A stretch of DNA of 61,542 bases, counting the filler, from Jimgerdemannia flammicorona (lineage: Eukaryota): NCBI GenBank assembly GCA_003990765.1. It is 3 parts of 3 records of this genome, joined end to end, with 100 filler letters (N's around TTAATTAATTAA, not from the genome) between each part and the next. Parts side by side here need not be neighbours in the genome. Positions count along the whole stretch, not along the records: positions 20,553 to 41,000 come from RBNJ01001682.1; 2 more parts are not named here. One strand, 5' to 3'. This document shows, one piece after another, positions 20,453 through 46,650 of this stretch. The notes beneath the pieces were generated by a model. It did no database searches and was not told the DNA's origin. It was given only the letters and a program-made list of their open reading frames with translations. Numbering within the stretch: the first letter of the stretch is position 1; the number at the start of each line of letters is the position of its first letter. The position numbers and the translations under genes were made by a program.

Positions 20453-20552
20453 NNNNNNNNNNNNNNNNNNNNNNNNNNNNNNNNNNNNNNNNNNNNTTAA
20501 TTAATTAANNNNNNNNNNNNNNNNNNNNNNNNNNNNNNNNNNNNNNNNNNNN
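20453..20552. other. Artificial contig spacer (N44-TTAATTAATTAA-N44)
   Basis: Exactly 100 bp with a six-frame-stop linker; identical to 41001-41100. Confidence 0.97.
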
Positions 20553-22036
20553 AAGAGATAACAAGACAGTTAAAAATAAGAAGTTTGAGGACTATAAGAC
20601 CTTGGGAAGGCACTCCAATAAGAACTTGCTTATAACAAACTTGAGTTAGTCTAAGAGATACACCTTGAAGAGAATCTGGTATATTTGAAGGACTCAGCGA
20701 CCACTACATGACAATAGTTAGAGAATGGTTTATCCAATTGATCATGGGGTTCTCTTGTTTTAACCATAGAGTCCCAAGGATGATTTTATTGTCAGGAAGT
20801 GGTACAATCTGGAGGGTAACATATACTTGATAGTCACCAATTCAAAAGAGTAGATTGTGGACTTTCTTGCTAATAATATGTGAGGTTCTATTAGCTGTGG
20901 CAACTGCTTGAGTTTGTTATATCAGAGATATCAGAACCTTGAGTCTGTTGGCTATTTCTTTATTGATGAAGTTGCCTGAGGCACCACTGTCTATCATAAT
21001 CTTGGCAGGTGCTTGGTTGATAAAAGCTTGAAGTATAAGTAGTTTGTCTGATCCAATAGTGGTAATTTTGGTTATAGAAGCTTTCCTTCTATTGGTTCTT
21101 CTTTGAGCCAGTTCATTGATACAAAAGAAGTAATTATCAATTATTTGGGAAGAGTACATTCCAATGCCATAGAGGTATCAGCCACTTAGTATATATCTAT
21201 CTTTAATTTTCTTATAGAATTATTCTTCTTTACTTATAGTAGATTGGACTGGGGTCTTGTTTGATGAGCCAAATCCTTTGGATTCTCAGATGATAGATAG
21301 TAGTTTAGGGACTTTCTTAACTATCAGAGTTGACTTGATTTTTTCAAATAGGATCTGGGCAATGTAGAAACCAATAGGGATCTTGAAGAGTATCCAACTA
21401 TGGTTTTGGATGAGGATATTGATTTTGTCTGTATAGTCTTCATCAATGACTCCTCCTTCTACTGAGAGTTCTTTCAATGCTAGGCTACTGTGATAGCATA
21501 TTCTTCCAATATGTCCTTTAGAGATTTGAATACTGATTCTTACTTAACTTCTTAGTTAGAAACTATAGCTTCTTCAGCTATATATAGGTCATAACTAGCT
21601 GCTTTTTGACTTTCTTTGGTTGGGGTCTTGATAGTTGGCCTTAACTTCAAAGTCCAATATCTTGGTGGTCAGATTGTTGAGATGGTATAGAGTAGTAATA
21701 GTTGCTCATATTGCTGTTTGGGGTTTTCGTTTCAGGTAGGTACTGGCTATATATCCTGTCTTTTGGCAATAGAAGTATGCTCTGCTTCTTTGAAGTTCAT
21801 TTCTTTCCCCTTTAGTGAGTTTCTTAAAGATACTTGGCTAGATAGGTTCAGGATTTCTGAGTGTCTATGAGATGGATGTGAAGGGAGCTTGAGATGTTTT
21901 ATGCTTGGGTTCTTCTTTCTTAGTCCAAGTTTTTTCTTATTGTTGAATTGTCTTTGGAGCAGAATTGGTCTGGCTATTAGTATTTGCTTGACCATAGTCT
22001 TGATTCTTGCCAGATACCATTGTTGGTAGTTACAAT
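20553..22036 (-). mobile_element. Ty3/Gypsy LTR retrotransposon remnant: gag zinc knuckle - dUTPase - aspartic protease
   Basis: Decayed CCHC (YFYCQKTGYIASTY, ~21735-21785). dUTPase motifs ASYDL, GGVIDEDY, IAQILF, KGFGSS (~21260-21660). Protease IMIDSGASGNFI (ORF 20917-21159). Confidence 0.82.
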
Positions 22037-22059
22037 TAGTACTCTGAACAAGTCAATTT

Positions 22060-22330
22060 GAATCAAATTTAGATTCAATTCATCACATGATAGTTTGATC
22101 CAAATCTCAAATCTGAAGCTATCTGAATCAACTTAGATTAATCCAAATCACCTCATCTGAATCACCCTATCTGAATCACCCATCTGAATCACTCCAATCT
22201 GAATCACTTAATCTGAATTACTCAATCTGAATCACTCAATCTGAATCACTCAATCTGAATCCTCCAATTTGAATCCTTCAATTCGAATCCTCCAATTTGA
22301 ATCCTTCAATCTGAATTCTTATCTGAATCT
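22060..22330 (+). repeat. hAT left subterminal repeat array (ATCTGAATC units)
   Basis: More than 10 tandem/near-tandem ATCTGAATC(ACT/C) units, plus a decayed ATCACGTGAT palindrome also seen at the right end (~31056). Confidence 0.8.
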
Positions 22331-22482
22331 TTCAACCAAATCCTCTAATCCAAATTCTCCACATGACTCATATGCCAGATGCATCTACAACACAATATAT
22401 ATACATGCATATATAATACATATATATGCATATACAATATATATATATGTATACATATATACATACAAACATACAAACACAC

Positions 22483-25400
22483 ATGTCAACAGATCAGTCT
22501 TCAATAGTTCACAGTACTGATGATGCTTCAAGTCAAATATCTCTGATAGTTCCACACCTTCCATGTAATCCTTACTCCGAAATCTGACAATATTGTGCTA
22601 AGATAGGAGATAATATTGTTTGTAATTATTGCAGGTAAAAAATTAAGATGCACCTATTGATACTTTTTGTTTTGATATACACATGATATTGTTTCATCCA
22701 CCCCCATAAATTGCACCAGCCAGAAGTTCAAAATGCTTGGTGGTATGACTTCAAACATAAATTAACACATAAAAGACAAGTACTCTGACAAAATCAAAAA
22801 GAACATGGAGATAAATAAAATTGACATACAAGCTGTAGTGGGTATATTTATCTGATTGCCCAACTATTTCTGTACCAATAATGCCATTTAATCAAAAATA
22901 TTTAGCTATATTCTTCAGCAGAATTTCGAAATTGGCTCATTCACTGAATTGTGTACACAGACCAGCCATTCACAACTATTGAGAGTGATCAATTATATAG
23001 CATCTTTGACCTCCTCAAGTATGATTTATATTTGCCAAGTGCTGATACTATTCACAAAGATATCCTGGAGGTCTATAGGAAGGAGCATGACAATCTCTAC
23101 CAGATACTTCAGGTAAAATAAGGGCAGCACCATGACCTTTGCAAGCTGAATTATATAAAAGAGCTCACCAATTTAACCTTACATTTAATAAGCAGAATTT
23201 GGCAGGTAAAATTTCATTTACAATTGACACATGGACATCCCCCAATACAATTTTGTTTCTGGGCATTATCAGTCATTAGATTGACCTTGATTGGTAGCTT
23301 AAATCTCTCACCCTTGACTTTGTCAAACTTGCTGGCCCTCATTCTGGAGACAATATTGCAGATACTTTTATTAGTTATATCCAGGAGCTTGGGAGGTAAA
23401 AAAGGGGGGCTTGCCATCAGGTCAGCATTTTGAGGGAGGTCCTAAAATAAACCAGATTTTATTGATTATTTATTTTCACATAAATTCACTAATCAAATAT
23501 TTTAAGTACAGATTTTGGCCATTATGATGGACAATACTACAAACAACTCAATATTTTTCAAAGTTTTAGTAGCTAGCCTCAAACAGGAAAATGTGGCCTT
23601 TGGTGCAGAAAGCTGCTATATGCGATGCTAGGTCTATGTACTGAATCTTGCTGTTCAGGACTATCTTATGCATGTAGACAAAACATCTGAGAGAGGAGGG
23701 GCCCTGAGTATAATTTCCAAGCTATGCAAACTGGTTGTATCAGTCTGATCATTCTTACAACAATGAGACAAATTCACTACATAGTGTAGAGCAATCAGTT
23801 TAGCCCTGAAAGAGCTTATATTAGACATCTGTATACATTGGAACTCAACATTTGCAATGATCCAGCATGTGCTGGAGTTTGCTGTAGTATGTATTCTTTT
23901 TTTCTTCAGTTGGCTAAAGCAACTTGTTTTAAAAAAAAAAACAAAAAACAAAAAAAGCCAATAGATTCAACAGTGGCTGCTGACAAGGAAATATGGACCA
24001 AGGCTCTAGGTGAAAGTGAGTTGGACATACTTAGGAATGTTGTCAGAGTTTTGGAAGTAAGTGGTGATTGCTCTGGCTCCACACTCATTTTGTCAGCCTC
24101 CACACTTGTTTTGTCTACCTCCACACAATGCAATATCTCACCACATATAACTGTTAGTGTTTTAATGATTGTATGAAGAATATAGTCAAACAAACGACCC
24201 CAACAATAAGCTCAGCAATACCAGTATACAACCTTCTGATTGACCGGCTAGAGGACAAGCTCAAGGATAGGCTGGAGAGTTGCAGTAATTTATAGTTGAG
24301 CCCAGATCAGAGAAATGCCATGGAGGTTGCTCTTAGTAAGCTCAGAAAATACTACTCCCAAACAGATACCACTATATACTCAATTAGTATAAGGTGGAGA
24401 ATTGGTGACAGGAAGGGGCCGCAATTGGGGTTCGGTGGATGAGGATGAAAGAGATGGCCAGGATGTACTGGAGTGAGGCTGGCAGAGTGGCAGGGAAGCA
24501 GTGAAGGCAGAGAGTGCATTGGGCTTCTATTAGATTGGCTAGGCTCCTGGAGGAGTGGGTGAGACTGGCAGTAGTGGAGGAAGAAGAGGATTGGAGAATA
24601 ACGAGGGTGAAGATGGAGGTTGGGGAACTACAATAGATACTGCGGGAAGAGAAAGAGGCAAGAATGCAAGATCTGGTGGCACGGCTTCATTGGCAGGGGC
24701 TGGAGGAAGGGGAGAGGCCTTCCAAGTTTCTCACGAGGACACTTTGAGCGAAAAGGGTACAGCAGTGGTGGGAAGGGATACTTGACTCAGATGGTATACT
24801 AGTGCATGGTGTACAGGATATCCTTGGAATACTGAAGGCGCAATGGAGTGGATTGTGGAGTGAGGAGAAGGGTGGGGCAGATGCTACAGCCATTGACTGA
24901 ACATTAGAAGATTGGCACCCATCACAAGCTGAGAGATTAGGAGACCTGGTGATTCCTGTAAAGGAGGACAAGATCCACCAGGTTCTTGTTGCGACAACCT
25001 CGGGCACAGTGCCTGGGGAGGATGGTCTCCCCTGGGACTTCGGGAAGTGAATGGTTGGGGTCCCGGGCATGTTGGGGGAGTTGACGGTACTGTGTAACTT
25101 TATATTGCAGTCAGGAAGATGGGTGGGGGAGCAGGATCTTGGGCTGGTGATACTGCTTTATAAGAACAAAGGAAGGCGAGAGAATTGGAAGAACTGGTGG
25201 CTGATAATGTTGCTAGATATGGACAGAAAGTTGGTGACTAAGGTGGTGGTCGCAAGGCTATAGAAGGTAGCCCAGCAAATTGTGGGTGTTGAGCAGAGGG
25301 GCTTCATTGGGGGTCAGCTTATTAGAGATGACATGGCCTGGGTATATGGAGTTATTGAAGGTACTCGAGCCTGTGGACTGGATGGGCATCTTGTCTTCTT

Positions 25401-27985
25401 GGACCAGGAGAAGGCTTACAACTGGGTACAGCGAGTCTGGTTGGTGAAAGTATTAGATAGAATTGGGGTTCCGGTCCCATTTCAGTTAGCGATGGTCAGC
25501 CTACTAGAAAGGAGTAGGGCTGCACTTGTGTATAATGGGCATAGAGGGGTAGCATTCCCTCTGGGTAGGGGAGTGCCCCAGGGGGACCCACTGTCCCCCA
25601 TTTTGTATGCTCTTTCTTTAGAACCCCTAATGGACAGGATTTGGTGGAGGATAGTAGGGCTCTCCATCTATAGCATTGGCTGGAAAGTTGGAGCTTTTGC
25701 AGATGACATGGTGGTTGGTTTGGGAATAACTGCTGATGTTGAGGAGCTCAAGAAGACAGTGGAGTGGTATGAGGAGAACTCTGGGGCAAAGCTGAATTGG
25801 CACAAGTATGAAACAATAGTGCTGGGCAATGGCCTGGTGGGTGGAGAGGTTATTGGAACAATTGTCCCCACCAGAGAGACAGTGCAGTACTTGGGCATCT
25901 ATTTGTCGGTCTATGGGTCTGTTCTGCCTAGGCTGTGGTGGGAGCAGAGGATTGGAATTTGGGAGGAGGACCTGCAGAGTTGGGGGGGAAGACACTTCTC
26001 TCTGGCAGGAAGGATCTCGATTTTGAATGTATACTGGCTGCTGAAACTGTGGTATTTGGCTTATCATCTGGACTTCCCAGCTTGGGTGGTGAAGAGATTG
26101 GTGAAGGTGGCCAAGGAATAGATTTGGGCTGGCAGATGGAGTCAGATTGGTTGGGAGACTTTGTCCCTACCAGTGGCGAGAGGTGGTCTGGGGCTGGTAG
26201 ACTTCTCCAAACAACTACACTGCTTGAGGGCATGGTGGCTTAAGAGGGTGGTGGCGTTGTGTGGAGGGGGCTGGGTTCCCCTGCTGCAGAAGGTCTGGGA
26301 GAGGTGGTCATCACCAAGAGGCTCGACTGGTGATCTTCTTTCATTAGTTGGGCTTTGGAACACTGCACAACTGAGATATAAAGGCTTCTGGTGGGGGATA
26401 GCCGAGGAGGCACACCACATTGGTATTTTCTGGCAAGGGGATGAGGGGGAGAGGGCTTGGGGCCCAGCGATGTGGAGATGGGATGGCATTCTTCTGGGAG
26501 GCATGCCTTTACTTGAGTTCAACATTGGTGATGGAATCAAATACCAAAGAGGACCAGGCCAGGATCTGTAGTCTAGTGGTTGGCAAGGAGTTGGAATTGG
26601 TGAGGAGTGGGACTGGTATGGGGTTTGGACCTGGAGTGCTACAGTGAAAAATTGGATGCTGCTGAAGTACTGAGTGGTCTGGTGGCACATGCTGAGGAGG
26701 AATGTGATGCTTAACTTCCACTCAGAACACCTTGTCGTAGGGGGCTGCTTTGACTGCAAGGAGTGCCATAATGTAGGGCAGGAAGGGGGATTTATACAGA
26801 TGCCAGAACATTGGCTAGGGGAGTGTGAGGTATTGAGAGACTTTTGGCAGGCCATTGGAGACTGATTGGGGGTAAGGCATAGGGGTGATGATGTACGGGG
26901 GAGGTGGGAGGACCTGAGGGATCGATTGGTAGGAGGGGTAGGAGAGGAGTGGATTACTTTAGACTGGGCATTGACTATTTGGATTGGGCTAGCCAGTCAC
27001 TGGCTATTTGTATTTGAGGAGGGGAGACAACAGAACTTGGGGAGCCAGTTATCATGGTGGCAGTGCCTTATGGAGGATATCTTGACAGGCTGGTGGCTTG
27101 GCTGGGGGCTGCAGGGGGGTCAGAGGCGCCACTTGGTAGTGAAAATCTGTGGTCAGAGTGGTGGGAGAGTTGGAGTTGTTGGTGAGAGAGTGGTCTTTAT
27201 ATGTGAAGAGGTGGGGAGGGGCCCCCCGATGGGGATTGGATAGTGGGTGGTGATATTGTATACTTATTTATAGACTGGTAATAAAGACAGAGTCCAAGGG
27301 ACTATAAAAAAAAAAAAAAAAATATACTCAATTAGTACAGGTATGTCAATGTTGGCATGTGGCCATTGCCTCTTCCAAAATAGAGAAACCCCTATAAAAA
27401 CTCACTCTTTCTTTTCTTTGAACAGTGCTGGACCCATGCTTAAAGCTACAATACCATAAAGATCAGGGCTGGGAGCAGTACTTCATTAAGAGAACCAAGC
27501 AGGCCATAATCAAAGTGTACTGGAAAAACTATGTACTGCCACAAGATTCCAGCCGAAGTCTGGACAAATATGTTGAGGGATTCCTCTTGTCCCACATTTA
27601 CTTCAGCAGAAAGGTAGCCATCAGTGGAAGAGCTGCTATCAATAGATAAACTTATCATTTACCTTACCAGCAATCACATGATCCTGCTGGAGGGCATAGA
27701 GGTGCTCAACTGATGGAAGGTAGGTTGTCAGGTGGGTGTTGGACCAATTTAACCCACCAATCTAACCACTGCTCTATCCACTGGGATGTGTAGCTATATC
27801 AAACAGACTTCCCCAGCCTATATGGTATGGCTCAGGACTACCTGGCAATTCCTGTCTCCAGTGCTCCCATTGAGCAGGTGTTCTCAGGTAGGATGGACCT
27901 CATTGCTCCAAAGAGGTGTGTACTGAACACTGAGATAATCCAAGTGTGTATGTGTCTGAAGTCTTGGTGGGGCTTGGGCTGCTAA
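22483..27985 (+). pseudogene. hAT (Ac-like) transposase, intron-containing, interrupted by a LINE
   Basis: BED finger SEI(W)QY...VCNYC (~22575-22635). DTWTSPN..FLGIISH and GPHSGDNIA (~23225-23360). MDNTTNN; HWNST (~23835); LDPCLK (27425). Dimerization domain FPSLYGMAQDYLAIPVSSAPIEQVFS...CLKSW (~27810-27985). Confidence 0.92.
24390..27321 (+). mobile_element. 5'-truncated LINE, subfamily C copy 1, inserted in the hAT transposase
   Basis: RT ORF 25282-26121 (QGDP, FADD); poly-A at 27306-27321. Perfect 16-bp TSD ATATACTCAATTAGTA (24374-24389 / 27322-27337). Confidence 0.95.
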
Positions 27986-28099
27986 AATTCAGTAGGTCCT
28001 GGGGGTTCACAGATAAGTTGGTTGGTCTTGTAGAATATTTAATATCTTTCAAAAATAATAAAAAGGTAAAAAAACCTGAGAACTCAGCCTGGAGTTTGC

Positions 28100-28500
28100 A
28101 GCCCAAGTGGGCAGCAGTCAGCAGGGTTAGCAGTGGTAGCAGAGGGAGTGCACAATGTTTGTTGCCCTCTTCCAGCAGCAAGGGGCAGCCCCAATCTATC
28201 AGTATCCAGGTCAGTGGACAGGTCAGTGAGTGGGCATGGGGTTGGAGAGAGTATACAAAATTTGTAGCCCTCTGCTGGTAGTAAGGAGCAGCTCCAAGCC
28301 ACAAGTATCTGGGATAAGCAGGGTAGGTGGAGGAAGTGTGTAAAATTTGTGGCCCTCTACTAGCAGCATAGGGGCAGCCCCAAGCCACCAAGGAGTTTGG
28401 GGCAGAGAGTACTTCTGGTGGTCAGAGGGTACTTCTAGTGGTCAGAGGGTGCTTCTGGCAGTCAGAGGGCATTTCTAGCAGTTGGAGGGTGCTTCTGGTA
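28100..28500 (+). repeat. Internal hAT repeats: three ~115-bp dispersed units and a ~20-bp tandem (TACTTCTGGTGGTCAGAGGG)
   Basis: Directly visible; inverted counterpart at ~40540-40910. Confidence 0.7.
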
Positions 28501-28705
28501 GTTGAAGTCCACCACAGATTCAGGCCCCATTACCAGTTCGGGTCCCATGGGCCAAGGGACTGATAGGGCCCTGCATAATAGCTAAGCTAGTGCTACAGAA
28601 GAGATGTCTAGCCAAACCCCCCACATAAGACTGCCCAATCTGTATAAAATGACTACCTAACCCTTATGAAAGACTGCCTATCTCTCATGAAAGATTGCCT
28701 AACCC

Positions 28706-30760
28706 TTATAAAAACTGCTCTACCTACTGGTCCCAGGCCTTGATGAGTCTATCATCTATTGTGAGTACAATAACTGTTGTATCTGAGCTCTCCTCAAAGG
28801 TGATGGTGCCATAGTGGTCATGTGGTTAGAAGAGGATGGCCATGTTGGCTACAAATGGAACCCCAAAACTATAGGTGAGGTCATACCAGACTCCTCCACT
28901 ATTCTTCCAGATTGGGCCCTTCCTTTTCGGGATATAAAACATTACTGGGGTGACATTGTTGTCTGTATGTATGGGCAGAGAAATGTTGTGCCTGATGTAT
29001 CCTGATGTGACACAAGTGTATGGTTGGTGAACCCTTGGCCCAAGACCTCATACTGCCAGGCTGTACTGGTGGATGCCTGCTCTTGGTCCAGCTCCAGAAG
29101 CCCCAGCTTGGAAACCTGTCAAAATGGATGGTAACCAGTCAGTCCTTTTTGTATGTGGGCTGGCAGAAACCCCCTGGGCTGCAGAAACCCCTGGACTGCA
29201 GAAACCCCCTGGGCTGCAGCACCCCAAAAAAGTGGAGCTCCTTACCTCATATAGTATACTAAATTGTACCAAGAATGTATATACAGCTGCACCAAGATCA
29301 CCACCAAGCTGGTCTACCATATGCTCTACCAATCTGCTCAAAGAACCCCAGATCATAGCCACCATCGCTACATAGGCTGTATTGTGCTTGCACATAGTTT
29401 GCTCTTCAATGGCACTTTTAAAGTTCTAGTAGGGGTACAGAATCTTATGCATCTCTGGAATTGTATCAAAAAGAGTATGTTGGTGAAGAGTGTGATTTAT
29501 CTGGGGAGGAGAAAAAAAAAAGGGAGATGAGTGTGGGGGATTTCAGAACTCTGGAACCCACTCTTTGCCAGTGTTGCAGTATACCCAATTCCTGTCCAAA
29601 CCCCCCTCCTTGTTTTTTTTGCTCCCTCTTTCCTGCTACCCAGTATTTAATATAATCCTTATAAATCTCATTGATGTGGCAGTAAAGCTCATCACTGTAG
29701 AGGTTTCTTACCACTATTGCAACCATCTCTTTACATTCGTTAATAATGATATAGTTCTCTTCATCATTGGTTACTCCTGCTGACCAATGGACCCCTTGGT
29801 CAAGAATAATTAGCTTTGATTCAAATGTAGACCCCCAAATCTTGATGATGATGCTGGTACTACTCATACTGAACATCTTATCCTCGAATTTCTCTATTTG
29901 ATCAGATGCCAGATGTAGTAACTTTGAACTCTCCTTTCCAATAGAACTGAGCCCTAATCTGAGGGACCAAGATAAGTGTGTGGACAGGTTACATGTAGAT
30001 GAGTTGCATGTGGATAGGTTGCATGTAGGTGGGTTGTATACAGGTAGGTTGTATGTGGGTGTGGGTGTTTTTTAAGAGGAGACCACATAAAAAATGAAAT
30101 TAAATAAAACACAGAGATGGGTATTTTAGAAAAAGAGCATGAGTGAGTGAGTAAGTAAGCTGCATGCCAATGAGTTGTATGAATTGCATAAGATTGCTCA
30201 TAAAGGCTTGCTTCTGTTCCTTTTGAGACCTCCACTATGTGATGTATTGACTCAATAGCTCAGCCACCAAAGACATGCCCCACAACATCCTCCAACCTTT
30301 CTTCATCTTGACCAGATGTTGCGAATAAAGTCAGCAAATCTCACCATAGAGCTGTAGACCCTAAGAAGAGCACAAGGTGAATCAGATCATGCTGGGGGAA
30401 TTTAAATAAGTAAAAAGTAGTAGCAGAAAAGAGCAACCTACATCTACTACCAGCTGCTCCAAAAAGGCTGCCATATACATAGCTGTGAGGTTTGTGAATT
30501 TCAAGGTCTAAAGAGCTGCTATGAGTTGTTGTCAGAATTCACCCTCATCCCCACCATCACCATTACTATCATTATTGCCATCACCATCACTACCACCATT
30601 GCCCCTTTAGCTCTCAATGAGCAGCTTGTGTGCTATCCATATGAGAAAGAATTTAACATTGTCAGCAGAGAGTGCATTTTCACCTCGAATACTCTCTCTT
30701 TTGATGATCATTGCAGAGTGAAAAATGAGTAGACTGGACCAATATATGAATTAAGGGCTG
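28706..30760 (-). pseudogene. hAT cargo gene copy 1: multi-exon, putative TET/JBP-like 2OG-Fe(II) dioxygenase fold, decayed
   Basis: GT-AG introns at 29561-29501 and 29245-29116; the 255-nt exon 29500-29246 is in frame. Last exon encodes ..NISLPIHTD..SGGVWYDLTYSFGVPFVANMAILF*PHDHYGT. Stops are transitions of sense codons in copy 2. Start position uncertain. Confidence 0.55.
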
Positions 30761-30894
30761 CTGTTTTGTTTGCTCATGATACAGCAGGAAAGAACAAAGA
30801 AAAGAGAGAGAATAAAAGGAAAGGGTGATATCACCAAAGTGTGGCAGAAAAAAAAAAACAAGAGCAAAATGAATAAAAAAAAGAGTGATGTCAC

Positions 30895-31103
30895 CAAAGA
30901 TTTCAATCTGGATGGATCAATCCAGATTAATCTAGAGATCATCCAGATGGATCAATCTAGATGGATCAATCTAGATCAATCTGGATAGATTAATCCAGAT
31001 CAATCCGGATCAATCTAGATCAGATCATGAGACCAATCTGAGTTGATTCAAATCCATCACATGATAAACCTGAATCAAATCTCATCCAGATCAACTCTAT
31101 CCA
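30895..31103 (+). repeat. hAT right subterminal repeat array (GATCAATCCA/TAGAT units)
   Basis: Tandem near-palindromic units; inverted counterpart at 38026-38225. Confidence 0.8.
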
Positions 31104-31115
31104 TTCAGAGCACTA

Positions 31116-34100
31116 CTCACTGGGCAGCCAGAGTAGGGGGGCTGGCAGTATAGTGACTGAGGGGTAACTGCTAATGGAAGTGTGATAGGTAATCTGAAAA
31201 AAAATCTAGATGGGACTACTGATAATGGACCAAGTTGTAGGAAGAGCATGAGACCTAGTGACTTGGCTGATGGTATAATGAGACTGACAGTAGCCCTGTT
31301 ACTTAAGAAGTTGAATTTGGAGTTTACAGTTACTTTGTGCTTCTGGGGCTTGGCAGTGATAGCAAAAATAGTTCTAGGACTGATTATGAAGCAGATGGGT
31401 GATATGGTGTCTGTTAAGTTCCTGAGAGGCCTAGAAGGGGTAGAGGTGGGTTTTGAGAAGGCTAGACCATTAGAAGATATATTGAAGGCTGAGTTGATAG
31501 TTGGGAAGGTGTGTGTACTAATGGCATACTGTCGGAAGTGGGATCCCAGAGTAATATAGTTCCTGGTAAAAGGAGTTTCTATAGTGACCACAGTAAAGAT
31601 AAGAAGGAGAGTAGAGGAAGTCATGGCTGAGGATGGGGAGGTAGTTAATATAGAGTTCAGGGTGTAGAAAGGAATCTCCTTCTAGACAGAGAATGTTGAT
31701 ATCCAGATTTGGTTGACAGAAAGAGAGGCTACTGAGAAGGCTCAGAACTGGCCTTCAGTAATGGTGTAGAGAGTCTTCATATACAAGATGATGAGAGTGA
31801 AGGAGAGTGAGGAGAAAGAAGACTTATCAGAGATACTGGAGAAGTTGAGTAATGTAGTAGAGTAAAGGGTGAAGGCTTGAAAGATATTTGTAGAGTTGAT
31901 ACACCTGGAGATTGTTGATGGAAAGTGGGTCTGCATCAATAAGGGGCTGTGGGAGAGGTCCCAAGGATGTAGGAGGTAGAGAGATTTGCTGGCAAAAATT
32001 GAGAAAGAGATGAAGAGGAATGCTGGTAGTAGTGAAGATACTGAAGGTACTAAGGTGAATATCTGAGCCAGTAGAAGTGGAGGGAATAAGGAGGTGGGTC
32101 TGGAGGAGACCAGGAAGGTACTGAGCAAGGACCTGTATGAAGATGATATGTTTGAAGTCTGGAAGAATACTCCTCCTCCTCTTATTAGGTAGGGACCAGC
32201 TGTAAGAGATCAGGTGGCAGAGGATATACCAATACATAGTATCCAGTAAGTATATTTCAGAGTTTCTGATGTAGTGAAGGGGGGATGGGTGGTGGCAGCT
32301 AGCAAAAAGGAATTGGTAGACATCCTAGAGAAGGAGTGGGATGAGTCTGTGAGCATAGGAGCTGATACTACAATGCTGAATAGAGGAAGGCCAGCGACTC
32401 TAGGGAGAAAAGAGGTGGAGAACCTACTATGGGTATATCAGATAATGAATAACTTGGTAGCTGAAGAGTTGGGGAAAGTGGACCTTAGAGTAATGAGTAA
32501 TGAGCATTGGGCATAGATCCTGCAGAGCAATAGAGTAGTGGCAGTATTGAAGGTAGAAATACTTGCAGTATATGTACTTAGAGAAGAAAGAGTATGAGAG
32601 AGAGGCTGAGCTGGCAGTTGTTACTGGTGAGTGGGCCACCTCCTGTTGGGCTAAGTGTTATGGATTGTAGCTCTGGCAAGAGGCCTGCCTGGAGTATCAT
32701 GAAGATTTTGAGGAAAAGGAGGATGGGGAGATAACTGAGCTACTGGTTGGATTGGAGGCTTAGAGGGCTGAAGAGGAGAAAGTATCTACTGAATACAATC
32801 TAGATGTGGTACAGGAGGTAATGAACATAGAGCAGTAGAGGATATATTTAATATTACACAATTTTTCTTATGAACAGTATAACTAATATTTTTTCTTTAA
32901 ATATAAATGGGTTATAAGGTTCTTTTCAGTATTAGAATATTTTTACTTTGCTGAAGGGATTGGAGGCCAATCTCTTTCTTTTGCAGGATGTCAGATGTGA
33001 GGATGATTTGGATAGGCTGGAATGGACAAAGAAATAGAAAGGTGAGGCAGTTTGGAAGGGTAAGGTTGGGATTCTGGTTTGGAGAGGCAGAGGGGAGATA
33101 CATGATGTGAGGAGCTAAGGAGATAGGCTGGTTTGGGGAGAGTGGATATGAATAGGTTGGGAGCCAGTTATAGTGGGTTTCTGCTACTGCCCTGCTGTAT
33201 AGAGTAAGCATGTAGATTGGGTGAAGGGTCTCCAGAAGAGTGGGGTCCTTACAGAGGCTGGAGTAGATATGCTTGGTAGAGACTTCAATATTGTCAGAGA
33301 TGTACTAGTGGATAGAACTGATAGAGGGTGGGGGACTGAGAATAGGAGTAGAGGGCTGGAGGCATGGGAGGAAGTAGAAAGGCTAAGTGCTCTGATGGAT
33401 ACTAGCAGGGGGTTCTGGGGTGATAGAAGGATATATACACATTGGACAGGTGGCCTGGAGATGAGGATTGACTGAATTCTAATAGTGAGCTGCTGGGGTT
33501 TGGATGTTTGGAAGTTGCTGGAGGCAGAGTGGTGTCTGTAGTTAGATTATTGAGGGCTGCTAGGGCAGAGTCATTTTGGAGAGAGTAGAGATCGGCCTGG
33601 ACATTGGTGTCTCAATTCCTCTTTGTTAGATGATAAGGTGCTGTGGGATGAGTAGGCTGAGGACATTTAGCAGAAGGTGAAGGGCTGGATGCAGGAAGGT
33701 GCCCCAGTTGGTATCTGGTAGATGAGGATGAAAGAGGCTGCTAGGGCCTACTGAAGTGAGGCTGGCAAGGTGGCCAGAAGACAGAGGAGGAAAAGAGTGA
33801 GATGGGCTTCTGCTAGACTGATTAGAAGATTGAGCAGGTCTGGTAGCACTGGAGGGGAGGGAGGACTGGAGATTAATACAAGTGAAAATAGAGGTTGGAG
33901 AATTACAACAGATGTTATAGGAAGAGGAGAAGGCACAGGTGCAGAGTTTGGCAGCATGGTTATATTGGTAGAAGCTAGAGGAAGGGAAAAGGTCTTCTAA
34001 GTATCTCATGAGGGCCCTTCAGATGAGGAGAGTAAAGCAGAGGTGGGAGGGGGTACTAGATTCCAATAGTCTGCTGGTGTATGATATACAAGACATTTTT

Positions 34101-36604: not shown

Positions 36605-38374
36605 CAAACTCTGAATGACCAAAGACCCTAATCATTCTAACTTATAGATGAGAGACTATGAATGAGTTTACCTAGACAATATCACTATTAAGAAAATATT
36701 AGAAGAGTTTTATAAGATTCAAAGAGATTAGAAAAAAATAACATTTTGAAAACATTTTAGAAAACCATAAATTGACTGGTGAAAAACAAAAACTGTGAAA
36801 GAAATTAAAGCATTTTAATGAACAAGATAAATATTTAGAGAAAAAAGTTGTAGAATTTTTATCAACTTAATATAAAGAAGAAGAGAAAGAAAGACTATTA
36901 AAATAAAGAATAATTAAAGGAATTAATAAGTAAAGTTAAGATAGATGCTAAATCTTATTCTGATGTAGTAAATATAGCTAAATAGTAGAAAGACTTAAAA
37001 GTAACAGATTTGAATAAGAAAATCAGAGATAAGTTAAAAATTATTCAGAAATCTTATATAATAATTGAAAATTAAGAAAGAGAAATCTAAAAATTATAAG
37101 AGAAAATATATATGAGATAATTCAAAATTATTGAGAAAAGTGAGGAAAACAATTTAAACTTAAGAAATATTACTTAATTTATCTAAGAAATCAAACAAAT
37201 TTCAATAACTGAAAATAAAATAAAAAGTAAGATTTCCCAATTATCAGAAAAGGTTAAATCTTAAACTTAAAAATAATTACTTAGATAGAAATTAAGTAAT
37301 ATGAAAGAACTACTTTATATAGTTAGATACAACCTGTGATTTGCCCCAACTTCAACAAGAGAAATAAAGTAGTTTGCCAAATCAGAACTTGCAATAAAGT
37401 AAGTTATAAATAGTTAATAATACTTATGCCTGTAAAAGATACAAGGAAATTTTTGAAAATGATGAATTACCTAAATGTGAGAAGTGTTGACAGCTAAAAA
37501 TAAATGAGTTTCATTATAATTATTCTGAAAATATAAAAAAAAAAAAAAAATTATTAGTATTATCTTATTAAGAAAGAGCTTTATGGTCAGGTATGGATTT
37601 TCTTTCTACAATTTGGTATTGAAATGCATGAATCTCATCTATAAGGAGGTGCTGAATGAGATATAGAAATCCAATAAAGAATGGGTATGTTGATACTTTA
37701 GAGATTGACTTTATGTAAAATTCAAGCTCTGTTCTTATAGCATAATTGAAATATTCCTCATACTAATTGATGAGAAAATATCTTGGCTGCCAGAAATTTG
37801 CCCATTGCTTGAGAACTTGATGGCCTTTTGAGATGATATTGATATACTGTTCCTTATTACTGACAAAGAAATAGTCTCCAGATATCCATGAACCAAATGT
37901 ATTATATATGATTGAAGTATAGAGTTTCTAACCATACTTGTTTATCTTGTGCATTTAGTCTATAATAACTAAAACACCACTTTGGTGAAGTATTTGTAAG
38001 TTGATGTCCTTTATAGTACTCCAAATAGATGGAGTTGATCTGGATGAGATTTGATTCAGATTCATCATATAATAGATTAAAATCAACTTAGATTGGTCTT
38101 GTGATCTGATCTAGATTGATCCAGATTGATCCAGATTGATCCATCTAGATTGATTCATCCAGATAATCCATCTGGATTGATCTAAATTGATCGATCTAGA
38201 TTGATCTATTCAGATTGAAATCTTTAGTGATATCACTCTTTCTTTTATTCATTTTGCTCTTGTTTTTTTTTTCCAGCTGCACTTTGGTAACATCACTCTT
38301 TTCTTTTGTTCTCTCTCTTTTCTTTGTTCTTTTTCTTTATTCTTTCCTGCCACATTACAAGCAAACAAAACAGT

Positions 38375-40281
38375 AGATTCTTCTCATATAGGCAGTACAC
38401 AAGCTGCTCATCGAGAGCCAAAGGAGCAATAGTAGTAGTAATAGTGATGGCAATAGTGATGACAATGGCAGAGATGAGGGTGAATTCCAGCAACAACTCA
38501 TGGCAGTCCTTTGGACCTCAGAATTCACAGACCTCACAGCTATATATATGGTAGTCTTTTTGGAGTAGCCAGTAGTAGATGTAGGTTGCTCTTTTCTGCT
38601 ACTACTTTTTACTTGTTTAAATTCCCCCAGCACAATCTGATTCACCTCATGCTCTTCTTAGGGTCCACAGCTCTATGGTGAGATCTGCTGACTTTATTCG
38701 CAACATCTGGTCAAGATGAAGCAAGGTTGGAGGACATTGCAGGGCATGCCTTTGGTGGCTGAGCTGTTGAGTCAATATATCATATGGCAGAGGTCTCAAA
38801 AGGAATAGAAGTAAGTCTTTGTGAGCAATCTTGTGCAACTCATGCAACTTATCAGCATGCAACTTGTCAGCATACAGCTCACTCACTCACTCATGCTCTT
38901 TTTCTGAAATACCCATCTCTGTGTTTTATTTAATTTCATTTTTTACATGGTCTCTCTCTAAAAAACACCCACACCTATATGCAATCTGTCTGCATACTTA
39001 TCTCGGTCCCTCAGATCAGGGCTCAGTTCCATTGGAAAGAAGAGTTCAAAGTTATCTAAGTTCAACCATATCTGGCATCTGATCAAATAGAGTAATTCAA
39101 GGGCAAGATATTTAGCATGAGCAGTACCAGCATCATTATCAAGGCTTGGGAGTCTACATTCAAATTAGAGCCAATTGTTCTCAACCAAGGAGTCCATTGG
39201 CCAGCAGGAGTAACCAATGATGAAGATAACTATATCATTATTAATGAATGTGGAGAGGTGGTTTCAATGGTGATAAGGAATCTCTACAGTAATGAGCTTT
39301 GCTGCCACATTAATGAGATTTGTGAGGATTGCATCAAATACCAGATGGCAGGAAAGAGGAGGTGAAAAAAGCAAGGAGGGGGAGTTTGGACAGGAATTGG
39401 GTATACTGCAACACTGGTGAAGGGTGGGTTCTAGAGTTCCAAAATCCCCCACACTCATCTCTCTTTTTTTTTTCTCCTCTCCAGATAAATCACACTCTTC
39501 ACTGACATACTCTTTTTGATACAATTCCAGGGATGCACAAGATTCTGTACCCCTACTGAAACTTTAGAAGTGCTGTTGAAGAGCAAACTGCATATGAGTA
39601 TGACATGGTCTGTGTGGTGATAGCAGCTATGATCTGGGGTTCTTTGAGCAGATTGGTAGAGCATATGGCAGGCCAGCTTGATGGTGATCTTGGTATGGCT
39701 GTATGTACATTCTTAGTGCAATTTAGCATACTATATGAGGTAAGGAGCTCTGCTTTTTTGAGGTGCTGCAGCCTGGGGGGTTTCTGCAGCCTGGGGGGTT
39801 TCTGCAGTCCAGGGGATTTCTATCTCTCCACATGCAAAAAGGACTGACCAGTTACCATCCATTTTGGTAGATTTCTAAGCCAGGGCTCCTGGGGCTGGAC
39901 TAAGAGCAGGCATTTACCAGCACAGCCTGGTAGTATGAGATCTTGGGCCAAGGGTTCACCCAACCATACACTCATGTCACATCAGGATATGTCAGGTGCA
40001 ATGTTTCTCTGCCCACACACACAGACAACAATGTCACTCTGGTAATGTTTTATATCCTGGAAAGGAAGGGCCCAACCTAGGAGGATAGCAGAAGAGTCTG
40101 ATATGACCTCACCTATGGTTTCAGGGTCCCATTTGTGGTCAACATGGCCATCCTCTTCCAACCACATAACCACTATAGTACCATCACCTTCAAGGAGAGC
40201 TTGGATACAACAGTCATTACACTCACAACAGATGATAGGCTCATCAAGGCCTGGAACTGGTGGGTGGAGTAGTTTTTATAA
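38375..40281 (+). pseudogene. hAT cargo gene copy 2 (putative TET/JBP-like dioxygenase fold), decayed
   Basis: Probable exons ~38375-38580, ~38662-38810, 39015-39423, 39485-39739 and 39871-40281, with GT..AG ends and a CTGAC branch site (39844). HTD encoded at 40018-40026. Confidence 0.55.
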
Positions 40282-40920
40282 GGGTTAGACAATCTTTCAT
40301 GAGGGATAGGCAGTCTTTCATGAGAGTTAGGTAGTTATTTTGTGTGGGTTGGGCAGTCTTATGTGGGGGGTTGGACTGGATACCTCTTCTGTAGCACTAG
40401 CTTAGCTATTATGCAGGGCTCTACCAGCCCCTTGGCTCTGCTCTGCAGTGCCACCAGTACAGTGCTGTGGTGTAGGGCCAGGGTGCCCATGGGACCTGAA
40501 CTGGTGATGGGGCTCGAATCTGTAGTAGACTTCAACCATCGGAAGTACCCTCTGACTGCCAGAAATACCCTCTGACCACCAGAAGCACTATCCAACTACC
40601 AGAAGTACCCTCTGACTGCCAGAAGCAGCCTCTGCCCTGGACTCCTTAGTGGCTTGGGGCTGCCCCTATACTGCTGGTAGAGGGCCATAAATTTTGTATG
40701 CTCCCTCCACCTGCTCTGCCCATCCCAGACACTTGTGGCTTGGGACTGCCCCTTGCTGCTGGCAGAAGACTGCAAATTTTGTGCACTCCCTCTGCTGACC
40801 CCATGCCCACCAATCCTACCAACTGACCCTGCCTGCTGATCTGGGTGCTGATAGCTTGGGGCTGCCTCTCACTACTAGTAGAGGGCCACAAATTTTGCAC
40901 ACTCCCTCCACCTACCCCCC

Positions 40921-41000
40921 CCTCCACCAACCTTCCCTCTGCCAATCCCCCCTCTGCCAACCCTCCCTCTGCCAACCCCCTCTCTGCCAACTCTCCCTCT
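40921..41000 (+). repeat. 15-bp tandem repeat (CCTCTGCCAAYCCCC) running into the gap
   Basis: About five direct units. Confidence 0.85.
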
Positions 41001-41100
41001 NNNNNNNNNNNNNNNNNNNNNNNNNNNNNNNNNNNNNNNNNNNNTTAATTAATTAANNNNNNNNNNNNNNNNNNNNNNNNNNNNNNNNNNNNNNNNNNNN
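41001..41100. other. Artificial contig spacer (N44-TTAATTAATTAA-N44)
   Basis: Identical to 20453-20552. Confidence 0.97.
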
Positions 41101-44100
41101 AAACCCTTGTGGTACCCCCCACCCAAACCCCAACTCCACCACCAGCTATTTAAAATGTCCAACAGCAACCATTCCCACCGTATCACCTTTTCACCAACCC
41201 CAATCCGACGCCCGTCCTCAAATACATGCACCCAATGCCCCGCCAACCCAACCCACATGGCCAAGGCCCAACCAAGGGTCAGCCATTCATCCCCGACCCC
41301 ACCCACCAATTGCAGGCGAAGCTCTCCCCATCTCCCCTCTCCCTCCCCTCCCCCAGCCCCCAACCCTAACCTGTCTATTATACATCTCCAGAACTCCCCC
41401 AAAACCTCACACTTGCCAAGCCAATGTTCAGGCATTTGTACCACTCCTCCCTCCTGACCAACATTGAAGCAATCCTCGCACTCGAATACTCCACCATCCA
41501 CCAAGTGACCAGATCGATAGTTCAGCATCACATTCCACCGCAGGATCTGCCACCACACCAACCAGAACTTGGGGGGCAGCCACTGCCTCACCCTTTTGCT
41601 CCAAAGCCAGAGCCCATTCCAATCCCACTCTTCCCCGATTCCAACCCTCTGCCAGGCTTCAGGCCACAGGTCTCCACCTAGGCCTCACAGACACTCCAGA
41701 CCCTCGCCAAGCTGAAAGTCCTCCACTGGAACACCACCCAAAAGAAGCCTATCTCATCTCCACATCTGCAGTCCCCAAACCTCCTTGGCCTCATCACCTT
41801 GCCACCGAAGGCCGATTTTCCTAGCTCCATCCACTGCTCCCCACTAAAAGCCTGTAAACTGCATCCTCTGGCTCCCATCCATGGCCACCATTGCAAGCAG
41901 GTCGCTGGAGCCACCACGTGGGGAGTATCGAACCTCCCACAATCTCTGCATGAGTGGCACCCACTCCCGACCTCTAAGCTCACTTGCCCTCCTTAGCCAC
42001 CAGGCCCTCAGACACAAAAGCTGCTTAGTAAAGTCCACTAAGCCCAGTCCACCTCTTTCCAAGAGCAGTGTGAGCACCTCCCAACCAACCTGGCTCTGCC
42101 ACCCTCCCCAAATCCATGACCTCGCCATCTTCAACAACCCCTTAACCACCTATGGTGGGAAATCCAAATAATATCCAACATACCACAGCTTTGGCATCTA
42201 GTACACATTCAACACCATCACCCTTCCGGCAAGGGACATATGCCGACCTCCCCACCGTATCAAGACATCACCCCACTCCAGCAGTTTATGGTCCCACCAT
42301 GCCTGGGGAAGAAGAGATCCGAATACCGAGAAGTAGATTCCCAAGTAACGCACTGATTCACCAGCTGGAACCACCATCCCAATAACATCACCTCCTACAA
42401 TTCCAGCACCCAGTACCAGCATCTTGCATTTGTGCCAGTTCAGTTTAGCACCAGAACCCTGCTCATACCATTCTACTGTCCTCTGCAACTCCCCAACATC
42501 CCCCAAGGAACCCAGTCTGACCACCATGTTATCGGCAAAGGCCCCCACCTTCCAGTTTACCCCCAAAATGTCCAAACCTCCAATCTTATGCTGAATCCTG
42601 TCCAGTAGTGGCTCTAGGGAAAGGGCATACAATATGGGTGACAAGGGGTCCCCTTGTAGCACCCCACGGCCCAGGGAGAAGGTCACCCCCTGGTGGCCAT
42701 TGATGACCAATGCCACCTGACTGTCCTCCAAGAGTCTGATCAATGAACCTCGGAACCCCGGGGGGATACCAATCCACTTCAGCACTCCTTCCAGCCATAT
42801 TCTCCACACTCTATCATAAGCCTTCTCCTGGTCCAGAAACACCAATCTGCCATCCACCTCTGTAGCCCAGGCCCCCTCAATCACTCCATGAACCCAGGCC
42901 ATCCCATCGCGAATCAACTGACTACTGACAAACCCACGTTGCTCCAAACCAAGCACTTGCTGTGCAATCCCTTGCAACCGCAACACCAAGATTTTCGTCA
43001 CCAGTTTGCGGTCCATGTCCAGAAGCATGATCGGCCGCCAGTTCTTCCAATCCTCCTTCCTGCCCTTGTTCTTATATAGCAAGGAGACCAGCCCCAAACA
43101 CTGACCCCCAATCCAGGCACCAGACCAAAGAACTTCATCGCACATAGCCATCATTTCCTCTAGTACCTCATGCACCCCTGTCATCTTCTGCCAAAAATCC
43201 CAGGGGAGTCCATCTTCTCCCGGGGCTGTCTCTTTACTCATAGAGGCCACCACCTTGCAAATCTCCTCGCCGCTCACTGGGTCCCCCAATGCCCCAAGTC
43301 CCATGGCAGGGTCTGGGTGCCAATCCCCCAGCTGCCTGTCAATGTCCTGAGCATCCAGTCCCCCTTCATCCTCACTCCAGAGGTTCCCCCACTGGGAACA
43401 CAATAGGCCCAAAATCGCCGGAGTCCCCACCACCAGCTTGCCATTCTCATCCAAAACTCCCTCCCACCACTGTCTCATTTGTCATGCTTGTAACAACCAC
43501 GACAAGAACCTGGTAGATCTCTCCCCTTCCTCTAGCCCCTGCCAGCGCAAGCGGGCCACCATCCCCTGCAACTGCTCCTCTTCCTCCCTCCATAGTACCC
43601 CTTTGAGCTCCTCCACCTCCTGCCAGATCCTCACAATATGCCAATCAGTCTCGGCCCTATCCTCCAGCCCACCCACCCATCTCTCCATGAGCACCGCCAA
43701 ATGCCGCGAGGCCCACATTACCCACCGCCTTCGCTGAGCACACTTCTCTTTCCCTGCTTCCCTCCAATACCCCTGAGCCTTCCCCTTCAATCTTCTCCAG
43801 CGGTCCCCAATCACCAGTCCTTGATCCCGCTACCTGCCAATAATGCCAACCACCTCTGCTTTCCAACCCTCTCACAATGCCCTATCCTCCAACAAGGAAG
43901 AATTTAGCCGCCAATGTCCAGGCCCATCCTCATTTCCCCCAAACCTCCCCCCTCCAAGCAACCCCCAGTGATCAGACCATGGACACCATATGACTCCCAG
44001 CACCATCCAGACATCTGCTCCCCAACACTCTGCTGTTAGAACCCAGTCAATCCTAGAGCCCAGTTCTGCTGCCCAATGGGTATACACCTGCCAATCAGCC

Positions 44101-46650
44101 CAAAAATGTCTCCCTGAGTCCACTAAAGAACACAACCTTTCCTTCTCCAACCAGTCCGCCAACCCACCACTTTCACCTCGCATGCCTCTCCCTCCATCAG
44201 TCCTGTCCAACTCCTTATCCTGTACCATGTTGAAGTCCTCTCCCATACAGTCTAACCCAACTTCTCCCAATAAACCAGCCTCTTTCAACCTGCGAATCCA
44301 ATCCACTCTCTCCCCTCTCTCAGCTGGGCAGTAACAAGACCCAACCATCAGCAAGCCCCATCCAGGCCGCTTCCATACTCCCCACACCACCCATGACCCC
44401 CAATGTCCAATGTCCCTAATGTCCCCCATCCCTTTCCAAACAAGAATACCTACTTTCTCCCTCCAAACTGCTGCACCCCCCCATTCCTTAGTCCAATCCT
44501 GTAAATCCACATCTGCATCATACTGAACATCCTGTAACAAGAAGAGGTCTGCATCCAGACCCCGAAGCCAACCAAAGATGTACTTCCTCCTAGCCGCCCC
44601 CCGTAACCCATTAACATTCAATGAGAATATTCTTGTTGTACTGTTCATATTGAATAGATATTGTAAAAGAGACCTCAACCTATAATTCCATGCTCATCTC
44701 ATCCCTCGCCAAGTCCAAGAGCCGCTCAGCTTCCAATTTACCCTCCGCAATATCCCGAGCATCCAGTGCCCCCAAGATTTCCTGACACTCCACTCTGTCC
44801 ACCTCCTCCATATCCACCCTGTAATCCAAGCAGACTGCTCACCACTTCTCTAGTCCCTTCCTCGAGTTCCACAAGACAAGTGCCCGGTCACTCGCAATCC
44901 TTCTAAGCTCCTCCTCTCGCTGATCATCAACCTGATACTCGACCAACTCCAGGAGGACAGCCAGGATCTCATTCCTCATCTTCCTCGGCACCTCTTCCCC
45001 ACATAGAATCTCCTCCCAATGCCTCTCCTCTATCACCCTGAAGTCCTCACCCCCCAGCTCCTCAGCCGCTACCCCTTCCAGGGTCTTCCACATCCACTTC
45101 TCCTCATCTACTGCCTCTGCTGCCCCCTGAGCAATCTGTCCCCCATCCACCTCGGGGTCCACCAGTGTGCTCCTCCTCACTGACTCATTCCACTCCTCAT
45201 CTGGCACATCCATCAGCTCCTCCTCACCTCCTGCCCCATTTGGAACACTATACTGAGGGCACCTACCTTCTCCCATTTCAGCATCTACCTCCAAGTTATC
45301 CTCCCGCCCCTCCCTGACTCCAATCTGAGCCCCACTCTGGGCCATCTCTCCCCCTTCAGCCCAGGCGCTCTCCTGCAACCCTGCAGCCCCTGCCCCGGAG
45401 CTTCCACCAGCCCCACCCCTGCCCAACTTCGCCAACAACTCCTTCTGAATCTTCCTCCCCTGCAACTTCTCTCAGGCCCCCTTCTCCATCTGAACCCTCT
45501 TCCCATCCACCTCCCCCACCACTGTCCTGGTCTCAAACTCCTTCCAGGCTAATCTTCTCCTTGCAACTGCCCCTTCCAGATCCTCCAGAGCCTTCAACAG
45601 ATCCTCCTCCTCCTCCTGAGTCCCCTTCACCCTAGTGACCTTACACTCCACCAGTCCCCACCTCAGCTGCTGGCCAGTCCCTCGACTTCCCTGTATTCTC
45701 CTTTCCAGCCAGTCGCACTCTGACATTGATATCTCCAGTCCTAAGCTCCATGCCCTCCCAGACCTTGAACCCAACATCTACAATCTCGCCATACTCTTTG
45801 ATCGCCTCCACAACCAACTCCCTGGTCCTTTCCTTCGACACCATAGGGAGGTCCAACACTGTCAACTGTACCACCTGGGGGTCCCAGCACATACACCAGG
45901 TCATAGGGACCACAACCCCGCCAACCATCACCCCCTTCTCCATGGCCGCCAACAAGGTGTCCTCCTCCTCAAACCCCACCTCAACCTCTTCCTTTCCCCT
46001 CAAGAACTTCACCGACACCGCTCCCTTAGCCTCCTGCGCCACCAGCTCCAAAATCATTCTTGCCGTCACTGCCAAGCCCCGGAAGCACATCATGACCACG
46101 AATTCCGACCTCGACTTCTTGAGTAACGGGGCCGACACCATACTCGTCACCCCATCCACCAGATCCCTGGGCCTCGTGCCCCCTCCAAGTCTCAAATTGC
46201 TAACTGCCGTCACATCTGGATTTTTTGCCAGATCCCCAGTCACAGCCCCATCAGTAGTCACATCTCCAGTCCCTACTCCGGCCCCTTCCCTACCACCAGA
46301 AGTACCCTGGGGTGTATCTCCCTGACCCCCGGCAGTAGCCATCAATGCCTTCCCTAGTCCCAGCCAACTATCCAGCTCAGAAGCCATCTTCCCCATTCTG
46401 ACCTTGTCAGTAAAGGTCGACCTCTCCCCTCCTCTCTGCCTCAGACCTCCCCTCCCTCCGCTGCTGGGGCCCCAGCTAGCCATCGAGGCCCCTGGCATCC
46501 CCAAACCATCTCCCCTCCTCCCCACCTGCTGCCAGCCAAAGGTGCCGTCACCCCCCTGGCCAGTGTACTCACCAGATCGATCATTGCCATCCATGTTGTT
46601 AGTCGTTGGACACCAAAAACGTTGTAAAAAGTGTTGTCTAAGTCTTGTGT
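41101..46650 (-). mobile_element. Near full-length LINE, subfamily D (3' end in gap), best preserved copy
   Basis: ORF1 at ~46594-44680. ORF2 from 44648 (IFSLNVNGL, LLQDV, GEDFN, RIDW, SDH; NWRPIMLLD, QGDP, AFADN; C-terminal CEDC..EHWLGKC). 5' boundary approximate. Confidence 0.92.

Follow-up and report, generated by a model that had tools for sequence, protein, structure and literature searches.

Genes for TET/JBP-type dioxygenases are carried by fungal DNA transposons. Kojima (2025, Biology 14:1741; PMC12730594) described them in 11 DNA-transposon lineages from three fungal groups, the hAT superfamily included, and escape from methylation silencing is the function proposed there for TET-carrying transposons. 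The types described include PU, found in 20 TET-positive hAT7 families of six Puccinia species with 7-base pair (bp) target-site duplications (TSDs), and PE, for which an HHpred e-value of 1.4 is given against CMD1 of Chlamydomonas. CMD1 is a TET homologue encoded by a host gene; it cannot use 2-oxoglutarate (2OG), an inability put down to the absence of a functional basic residue at the position for the C5 carboxylate, the group that Arg1896 holds in TET2 and Arg289 in NgTET1 (PMC7854593). Here we analyse a 61,542-nucleotide (nt) stretch of the genome of Jimgerdemannia flammicorona (GCA_003990765.1), hereafter the window, which holds two dead copies (A and B) of a hAT element of about 6.1 kilobases (kb). 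Convergent with the transposase gene lies a four-exon gene (the cargo gene) for a protein of about 366 amino acids (aa), and we think it likely, with some reserve, that this protein was a highly divergent TET/JBP-like Fe(II) dioxygenase whose ancestral role was to counter silencing. An earlier note on this DNA had proposed such a gene and knew of no association of TET/JBP genes with hAT elements; the TET-positive hAT families already reported (PMC12730594) correct it on the latter point. What is new is that hAT termini unlike those of hAT7 occur together with a PE-like protein in which HxD is present and the 2OG-binding Arg is absent.

Three separate contigs make up the window. Linkers of the form N...TTAATTAATTAA...N, at about 20453-20553 and 41000-41100, are the artificial joints between them, and no distance or neighbourhood that spans a joint has any meaning; both copies lie on the middle contig (Table 1). 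The element is a hAT-superfamily DNA transposon, about 6.1 kb long once an inserted long interspersed nuclear element (LINE) is discounted. The C-terminal part of its transposase matches Dimer_Tnp_hAT (PF05699; positions 27794-27985) with E = 1.7e-12 and 47.4 bits against a cut-off of 21.4, and Pfam gave no match in the N-terminal and central pieces. The 12-bp terminal inverted repeats (TIRs) of copy A agree at 11 of 12 positions, the sole difference being a transition, and its left and right ends share the subterminal motif TCATCAYRTGATRG and short A/T-rich repeats. The LINE lies within the transposase gene and is bounded by a perfect 15-bp target duplication (TATACTCAATTAGTA; 24375-24389 and 27323-27337), beyond which the transposase reading frame resumes. 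Because the LINE carries this perfect duplication, the two halves of the transposase gene were formerly contiguous, and the insertion postdates the decay of the hAT element by far.

Like copy A, hAT7 of Puccinia is a hAT element with a TET/JBP-type gene beside its transposase, and the comparison with the hAT7 entries of the published supplement is otherwise one of differences. The five hAT7_PGr rows begin with CAACGGTGGG.. or CAGCGATGGG.., whereas the present element begins with TAGTRCTCYRAA / TAGTRCTC, and no family in the supplement text (cells cut at 400 characters) starts with the TIR words of this element. In three hAT7 families the TET gene precedes the transposase and points the same way; here it lies downstream and is convergent. 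The hAT7 protein is of the PU type (GGKMWGIGWRK ... PHKD ... RLGLSLQ), which the cargo protein does not resemble, and hAT7 has 7-bp TSDs whereas none was found for copy A (PMC12730594).

In copy A the cargo gene lies inside the hAT element, on the minus strand between the transposase stop and the right TIR, and no internal TIRs or repeats bound it. Setting copy A against its inverted counterpart, copy B, separated exons from introns and revealed the indels. In the revised gene model the frame is kept through all junctions (95+386+209 nt) and a ..GIGYTATL.KGMH.. block is restored; two intron positions and their phases are identical to those of the related gene on metagenome contig L001, described below. 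An 'INHTLHQ...' reading of scraps as coding was rejected, because with a longer exon 2 and a later acceptor the G-Y-T...K-G-M-H block is recovered and the intron phase agrees with that of L001. The spliced product of copy A comprises about 366 aa, with X at the breaks. The earlier note had described a hAT element with a convergent, spliced and decayed gene between 27985 and 31115. The Dimer_Tnp_hAT match and the TIRs bear out the first part of that description and the exon model in both copies the second; its two-copy consensus of the last exon also agrees with the translations of A and B. Of the limits it had drawn, 28706 is right for the 3' end and 30760 overshoots the 5' end, as the likely ATG comes about 450 bp further downstream.

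In copy B the gene adjoins the same TIR (38014-38025, TAGTACTCCAAA) as in copy A. Only one end of the element is present there, and since copy B stops at a contig joint, the cut is a contig end and not biology. BLASTN gave 80-83% identity between the copies. Aligned over 2791 columns (A, 28142-31115; B, 38014-40908), they are 85% identical, with 399 transitions and 22 transversions, and their collinearity extends from the TIR across the gene to a point 157 bp short of the transposase stop. Both copies are dead and their genes are pseudogenes: the gene of copy A is interrupted by four in-frame stops and two deletions of 1 bp each, near 29600 and 29027, that of copy B by nine in-frame stops and an 11-bp insertion. 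The ratio of observed to expected CpG (CpG o/e) is 0.04-0.06 in the copies, and 59 CA/TG doublets between A and B represent CpGs lost on opposite strands. C/T differences affect 23-37% of sites in CpA context, 7-33% in some CpC contexts and 1-3% in CpT; being common at CpA and CpC and rare at CpT, they are not sufficiently explained by plain CpG deamination. Nor is classical repeat-induced point mutation obvious, as TpA is not enriched in the stretch (o/e 0.80). Downstream of the gene, both copies have minisatellite-like repeats composed of GGTCAGAGGGTRCTTCT units and a unit of about 110 bp (28140-28560 and, in copy B, 40430-40910), and the assembly break of copy B follows directly after them. 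A threefold repeat of GGGGGTTTCTGCAGCC occupies part of the last intron (29150-29240; copy B, 39760-39830).

A profile of the last exon retrieved five proteins among 1.84 billion representatives: P0003 (E = 7e-65), P0004 (8e-29), P0005 (1e-8), P0006 (2e-7) and P0007 (8e-7). A word-based protein search with P0006 (374 aa) added P0008 and no other match; the same kind of search returned nothing with the last exon ('longer' lengths) and already known proteins only with alignment A2. Two metagenome contigs, L001 and L002, were found with an alignment of P0008, P0006 and P0005, and a metagenome scan with the close alignment A3 yielded 226 pattern matches, none of them confirmed. The closest intact relative is P0003, which is 70-73% identical to the cargo products of copies A and B. 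Spliced copy A matches P0006 along most of the model with E = 1.5e-31 (residues 88-334 against 93-337, 254 columns), P0003 with 8.7e-70, P0004 with 3.2e-39, L001 with 7.6e-30 and P0008 with 1.6e-23. The L001 and L002 sequences are 99% identical, with 34% GC and a CpG o/e of 1.2; the spliced L001 gene is an intact 343-aa frame of at least three exons, the last exon of L002 is broken by a stop, and the lineage is represented further by two fragments of the last exon, P0005 and P0007. Nearly invariant in the ten rows of the family alignment are the H of HxD, the Tyr of the GG strand, an Asn and a Phe. Judged by these matches, the introns in common with L001 and this conservation, the cargo belongs to a real, small protein family that keeps H-x-D ... 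GG ... H-G-[TS], and is not a set of chance open reading frames (ORFs). On the two contigs (L001, 1-3666; L002, 1-2870) the gene is followed by a second spliced ORF with no Pfam match (about 2340-3250) and then by GATTTGA-type repeats at the contig end; kinship of these terminal repeats of L001 with the hAT ends was considered and found unsupported (best short match, E = 0.015).

Structural, feature-based and profile comparisons point, if indirectly, to the cargo product as a probable TET/JBP-like Fe(II) dioxygenase with a putative double-stranded beta-helix fold. For the ESM Atlas model of P0003 (identical sequence; predicted local distance difference test (pLDDT) 0.69), 8 of the 10 rows of structural neighbours are classed by name or Pfam as 2OG-Fe(II) oxygenases, with template modelling (TM) scores of 0.54-0.63, and one structural-neighbour cluster carries Tet_JBP on 28% of its members. 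Among the feature matches of P0003 are a Tet_JBP cluster (score 0.88) and, at 0.91 with 178 shared features, a 'Tet-like 2OG-Fe(II) oxygenase' cluster in which 72% of members carry PF20515; the top feature match of P0006 (score 0.96) is a cluster from Basidiomycota in which 15% of members carry PF20515.

The profile comparison covered three 2OG families, all represented by phage proteins. The Tet_JBP set of seven comprised Mycobacterium phage Cooper gp2 (PF12851, 4e-6), itself below the Pfam cut-off (26.6 versus 34.9 bits), and six phage homologues. Against this set, hhalign scored the cargo family at 35.1 (P = 5.7e-4, 68 columns), pairing PtHvD with PyHrD, GG with GG and HG[TS] with HGVT, so that the HxD, GG and HG core aligns motif by motif; in host, gene structure and context the phage proteins differ from the cargo gene. 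The reversed alignment scored 17.6, and the maxima of 100 column shuffles and 100 block shuffles were 22.4 and 23.1, so that none of the 200 reached 35.1. Scores against 14 cyanophage PF13640 proteins and 13 PF13759 proteins were 17.5 and 15.6, at the background set by the shuffles (mean 14.5-16.2). With the ten-row alignment A5 the values were 35.7 for Tet_JBP, 19.3 for PF13640 and 16.5 for PF13759. By this measure, Tet_JBP appears to be the nearest of the three tested families to the cargo family.

Several results weigh against this reading. No member among the ten rows of A5 matches Tet_JBP, PF20515 or other 2OG models of Pfam even at E<=10, and the family profile matches no Protein Data Bank (PDB) chain at E<=10. 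AlphaFold2 models (pLDDT 38.1 for P0006 with 8 rows and 36.1 for P0003 with 10 rows) are too poor to show the geometry of the triad. All structural rows of P0003 fall below the Atlas naming bar, and most of the named neighbours are prolyl-hydroxylase-like (PF13640, PF13759), not TET. The hhalign probability for Tet_JBP is low (29.6%) and, because the phage Tet_JBP set itself scores 38.2 against PF13640 and 32.8 against PF13759, a score of 35.1 denotes kinship at the level of the superfamily, not membership. These results would suit a 2OG-Fe(II)-type oxygenase that is no TET/JBP DNA modifier, such as a hydroxylase of proteins or small molecules that the transposon captured and that plays no part in methylation. 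We consider this account unlikely, if the most credible of the alternatives: the phage PF13640 and PF13759 scores do not rise above background, the Atlas searches by feature name no family but Tet-like PF20515 and Tet_JBP, the transposon-borne 2OG oxygenases described in fungi (PMC12730594) are TET/JBP proteins, and the order of motifs is, by eye, that of the PE type. The TET/JBP-like assignment of the earlier note thus stands in part, with the Atlas neighbours, the hhalign score and the motifs on its side and no sequence match in Pfam or PDB; the comparison with the Pfam models of Tet_JBP (PF12851) and 2OG families, which it had named as a check, gave no match.

Like the cargo family, the PE type is transposon-borne and very far from canonical TET. 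Set beside the Table S1 passages of Kojima (2025), the family shows by eye the same order of blocks, E[LM]V..V[VI]RN; ..G[LY].SAG..; ..[LM]DG.G..; GG.[FW]Y...YG[IFV].V....N[TM].I.[FW]......HG[TS], the strongest PE-like block being GG.[FW]Y...YG..V....N[TM].I.[FW]......HG[TS]. This likeness, made by eye with passages of that table, has the standing of a lead, which tempers the TET/JBP-like reading. The hallmark of the PE type is HxE, whereas the cargo family has HxD (HTD or HVD), and the PE rows have an Arg before the last strand (..QRGLAFV..) that the cargo family lacks (PMC12730594).

At the active site, five members (P0003, P0004, P0006, P0008 and L001) keep both H-x-D and the distal H-G-[TS]. 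P0005 and P0007 read HVN instead of HVD, and the other members have HTD or HVD. Copies A and B keep HTD, but their distal motif is HYGT (A) or HYST (B) where the relatives have x-H-G-T/S, a change of the distal His to Tyr by one C-to-T substitution common to both copies. No family row has a conserved Arg or Lys 8-16 residues after the distal His, and no member has a counterpart of TET2 Arg1896 or NgTET1 Arg289, which again tells against a TET/JBP-like enzyme. Seven residues ahead of HxD, an Arg is conserved (G-R-C-A..) that may correspond to the other Arg binding 2OG. Both caveats of the earlier note, the missing 2OG-binding Arg and the distal HYGT, hold: HYGT is found in A, HYST in B, and no Arg precedes the last strand.

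As described (PMC7854593), CMD1 resembles the cargo family in having an HxD...H triad and no functional basic residue to bind the 2OG C5 carboxylate; the two are likened by description only, and CMD1 is a host gene whereas the cargo gene is transposon-borne. That the absent basic residue accounts for the inability of CMD1 to use 2OG motivates a reading with an alternative co-substrate. On this more speculative proposal, which we hold to be improbable, the cargo family (the cargo gene, P0003-P0008, L001 and L002) would be a fourth, unclassified transposon-borne TET type with HxD...H and no C5-carboxylate residue. It would use a CMD1-like co-substrate other than 2OG, for example ascorbate, and produce a hypermodified cytosine where a simple oxidation of 5-methylcytosine would be expected; it would travel in a hAT lineage unlike hAT7, and be present intact as well in a soil eukaryote that is AT-rich and not depleted of CpG.

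The same residues could indicate a non-catalytic derivative of the fold, an accessory protein of the transposon that binds DNA or 5-methylcytosine (5mC) without 2OG turnover. The absence of Arg or Lys at the C5-carboxylate position in every member, HVN in P0005 and P0007 and Tyr at the distal His of copies A and B are what such a protein would show. We find this account very doubtful: the Tyr is a C-to-T change in copies that are otherwise dead, CMD1 is a TET homologue active without a C5-binding Arg (PMC7854593), and H-x-D with H-G-[TS] is kept in the five sequences named above, from sources of very different base composition (L001, 34% GC and CpG o/e 1.2), which fits selection on metal binding.

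The linkage of the TET/JBP-like gene to the hAT element draws on one complete and one truncated copy (the window has two copies of the gene and one of the transposase). Moreover, neither a 7-bp nor an 8-bp TSD is present in the flanks of copy A (GTTACAAT and CTCACTGG), and neither L001 (3.7 kb) nor L002 (2.9 kb) contains a transposase; these points, too, count against the preferred reading. A decayed TSD was rejected: 3 of 8 flank positions are identical and three of the differences are transversions, although only 22 of the 421 substitutions that separate A from B are of this kind. Copy A is flanked by two different repeats. On the left (20917-21177, minus strand), ..IDSGASGNFI.. is by eye a retroviral-type aspartic protease motif of a long terminal repeat element; on the right (31151-31461), the sequence has weak similarity to a LINE found elsewhere in the stretch. 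That the gene is no true cargo, copy A being a chimera or the gene belonging to another element nested beside the hAT end, is the least probable account of all, for although the missing TSD, the unlike flanks and the lack of a transposase in the distant relatives L001 and L002 speak for it, the same TIR-to-gene arrangement runs unbroken in both copies, no internal TIRs or repeats bound the gene, and the left and right ends share TIR and subterminal motif.

Table 1. Coordinates of the two element copies and of their parts in the window
Feature	Position	Strand	Remarks
Copy A, hAT element	22037-31115	+	9079 bp; about 6131 bp minus LINE and duplicated target; TIRs at both ends
Left TIR, TAGTACTCTGAA	22037-22048	+	Followed by subterminal TCTGAATCA-type repeats until about 22340
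hAT transposase, N-terminal and central exons, decayed	22948-24389	+	hAT-like motifs by eye, e.g. ...FTIDTWTS...
5'-truncated LINE within transposase gene	24390-27322	+	RVT_1, 7e-18; poly(A) at 27306-27322
hAT transposase, C-terminal exons	27422-27985	+	Stop at 27985
Cargo last exon (4), copy A	28707-29115	-	Catalytic core HTD, GG, HYGT; 1-bp deletion near 29027; two in-frame stops
Cargo exon 3, copy A	29246-29454	-	One in-frame TAG; phase-0 intron after ..LY(E), as in L001
Cargo exon 2, copy A	29562-29946	-	1-bp deletion near 29600; phase-1 intron before G-M-H, as in L001
Cargo exon 1, copy A	30212-30306	-	ATG and one in-frame TAG; ..ELLSQYIT(W)WRSQ.. aligns with the P0006 N-terminus (MAFFT)
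Right TIR, TAGTGCTCTGAA (read inward)	31104-31115	-	0 mismatches to the TIR pattern
Copy B: TIR, cargo pseudogene, downstream repeats	38014-40908	+	Inverted relative to copy A; runs to the contig joint at about 41000
Cargo pseudogene, copy B	38716-40280	+	Four exons; 9 in-frame stops
Copy B exons	38716-38810; 39027-39423; 39531-39739; 39871-40280	+	11-bp insertion in 39027-39423

The whole stretch is AT/GC-balanced (46.6% GC) and strongly depleted of CpG (o/e 0.30). Nearly everything in positions 1-20452 and 41101-61542 is repeats. In a Pfam scan of the stretch RVT_1 matched 8 of 122 ORFs, seven of the eight in the two outer contigs, and an Exo_endo_phos ORF lies at 43875-44693 (minus strand) and a Tc1/mariner-type DDE_3 ORF at 48238-48831. 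A Pex22 HAD-like domain (55821-56402, minus strand; 3.1e-11) is likely to be a piece of a host gene. Among sequencing runs, a single one, labelled soil metagenome, was listed as containing this sequence (share 0.08), and no RNA run was among them.

If the cargo was, as we prefer to think, a TET/JBP-like dioxygenase, the enzyme of the active ancestor would have bound Fe(II) through its HxD...H triad and modified methylated cytosine in DNA, most likely by oxidation of 5mC. Such a modification may have let the element resist methylation-based silencing, by analogy with what has been proposed for other fungal TET-carrying transposons. In the genome of J. flammicorona the element would then have lost: CpG is almost gone from the two copies, and transitions have broken the gene, the change of the distal His to Tyr among them.

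A DNA-demethylating enzyme carried by a transposon is a direct counter-measure to silencing by methylation. Since this principle, carriage by hAT elements included, was published in 2025, the present case opens no new question. Its contribution is one more lineage of carriers, a family of proteins that has only a few known relatives and is covered by no Pfam model, and an odd active site in which HxD and H are kept and the 2OG-binding Arg is absent. With nearly all CpG lost and many transitions, both copies show the end state of the conflict.

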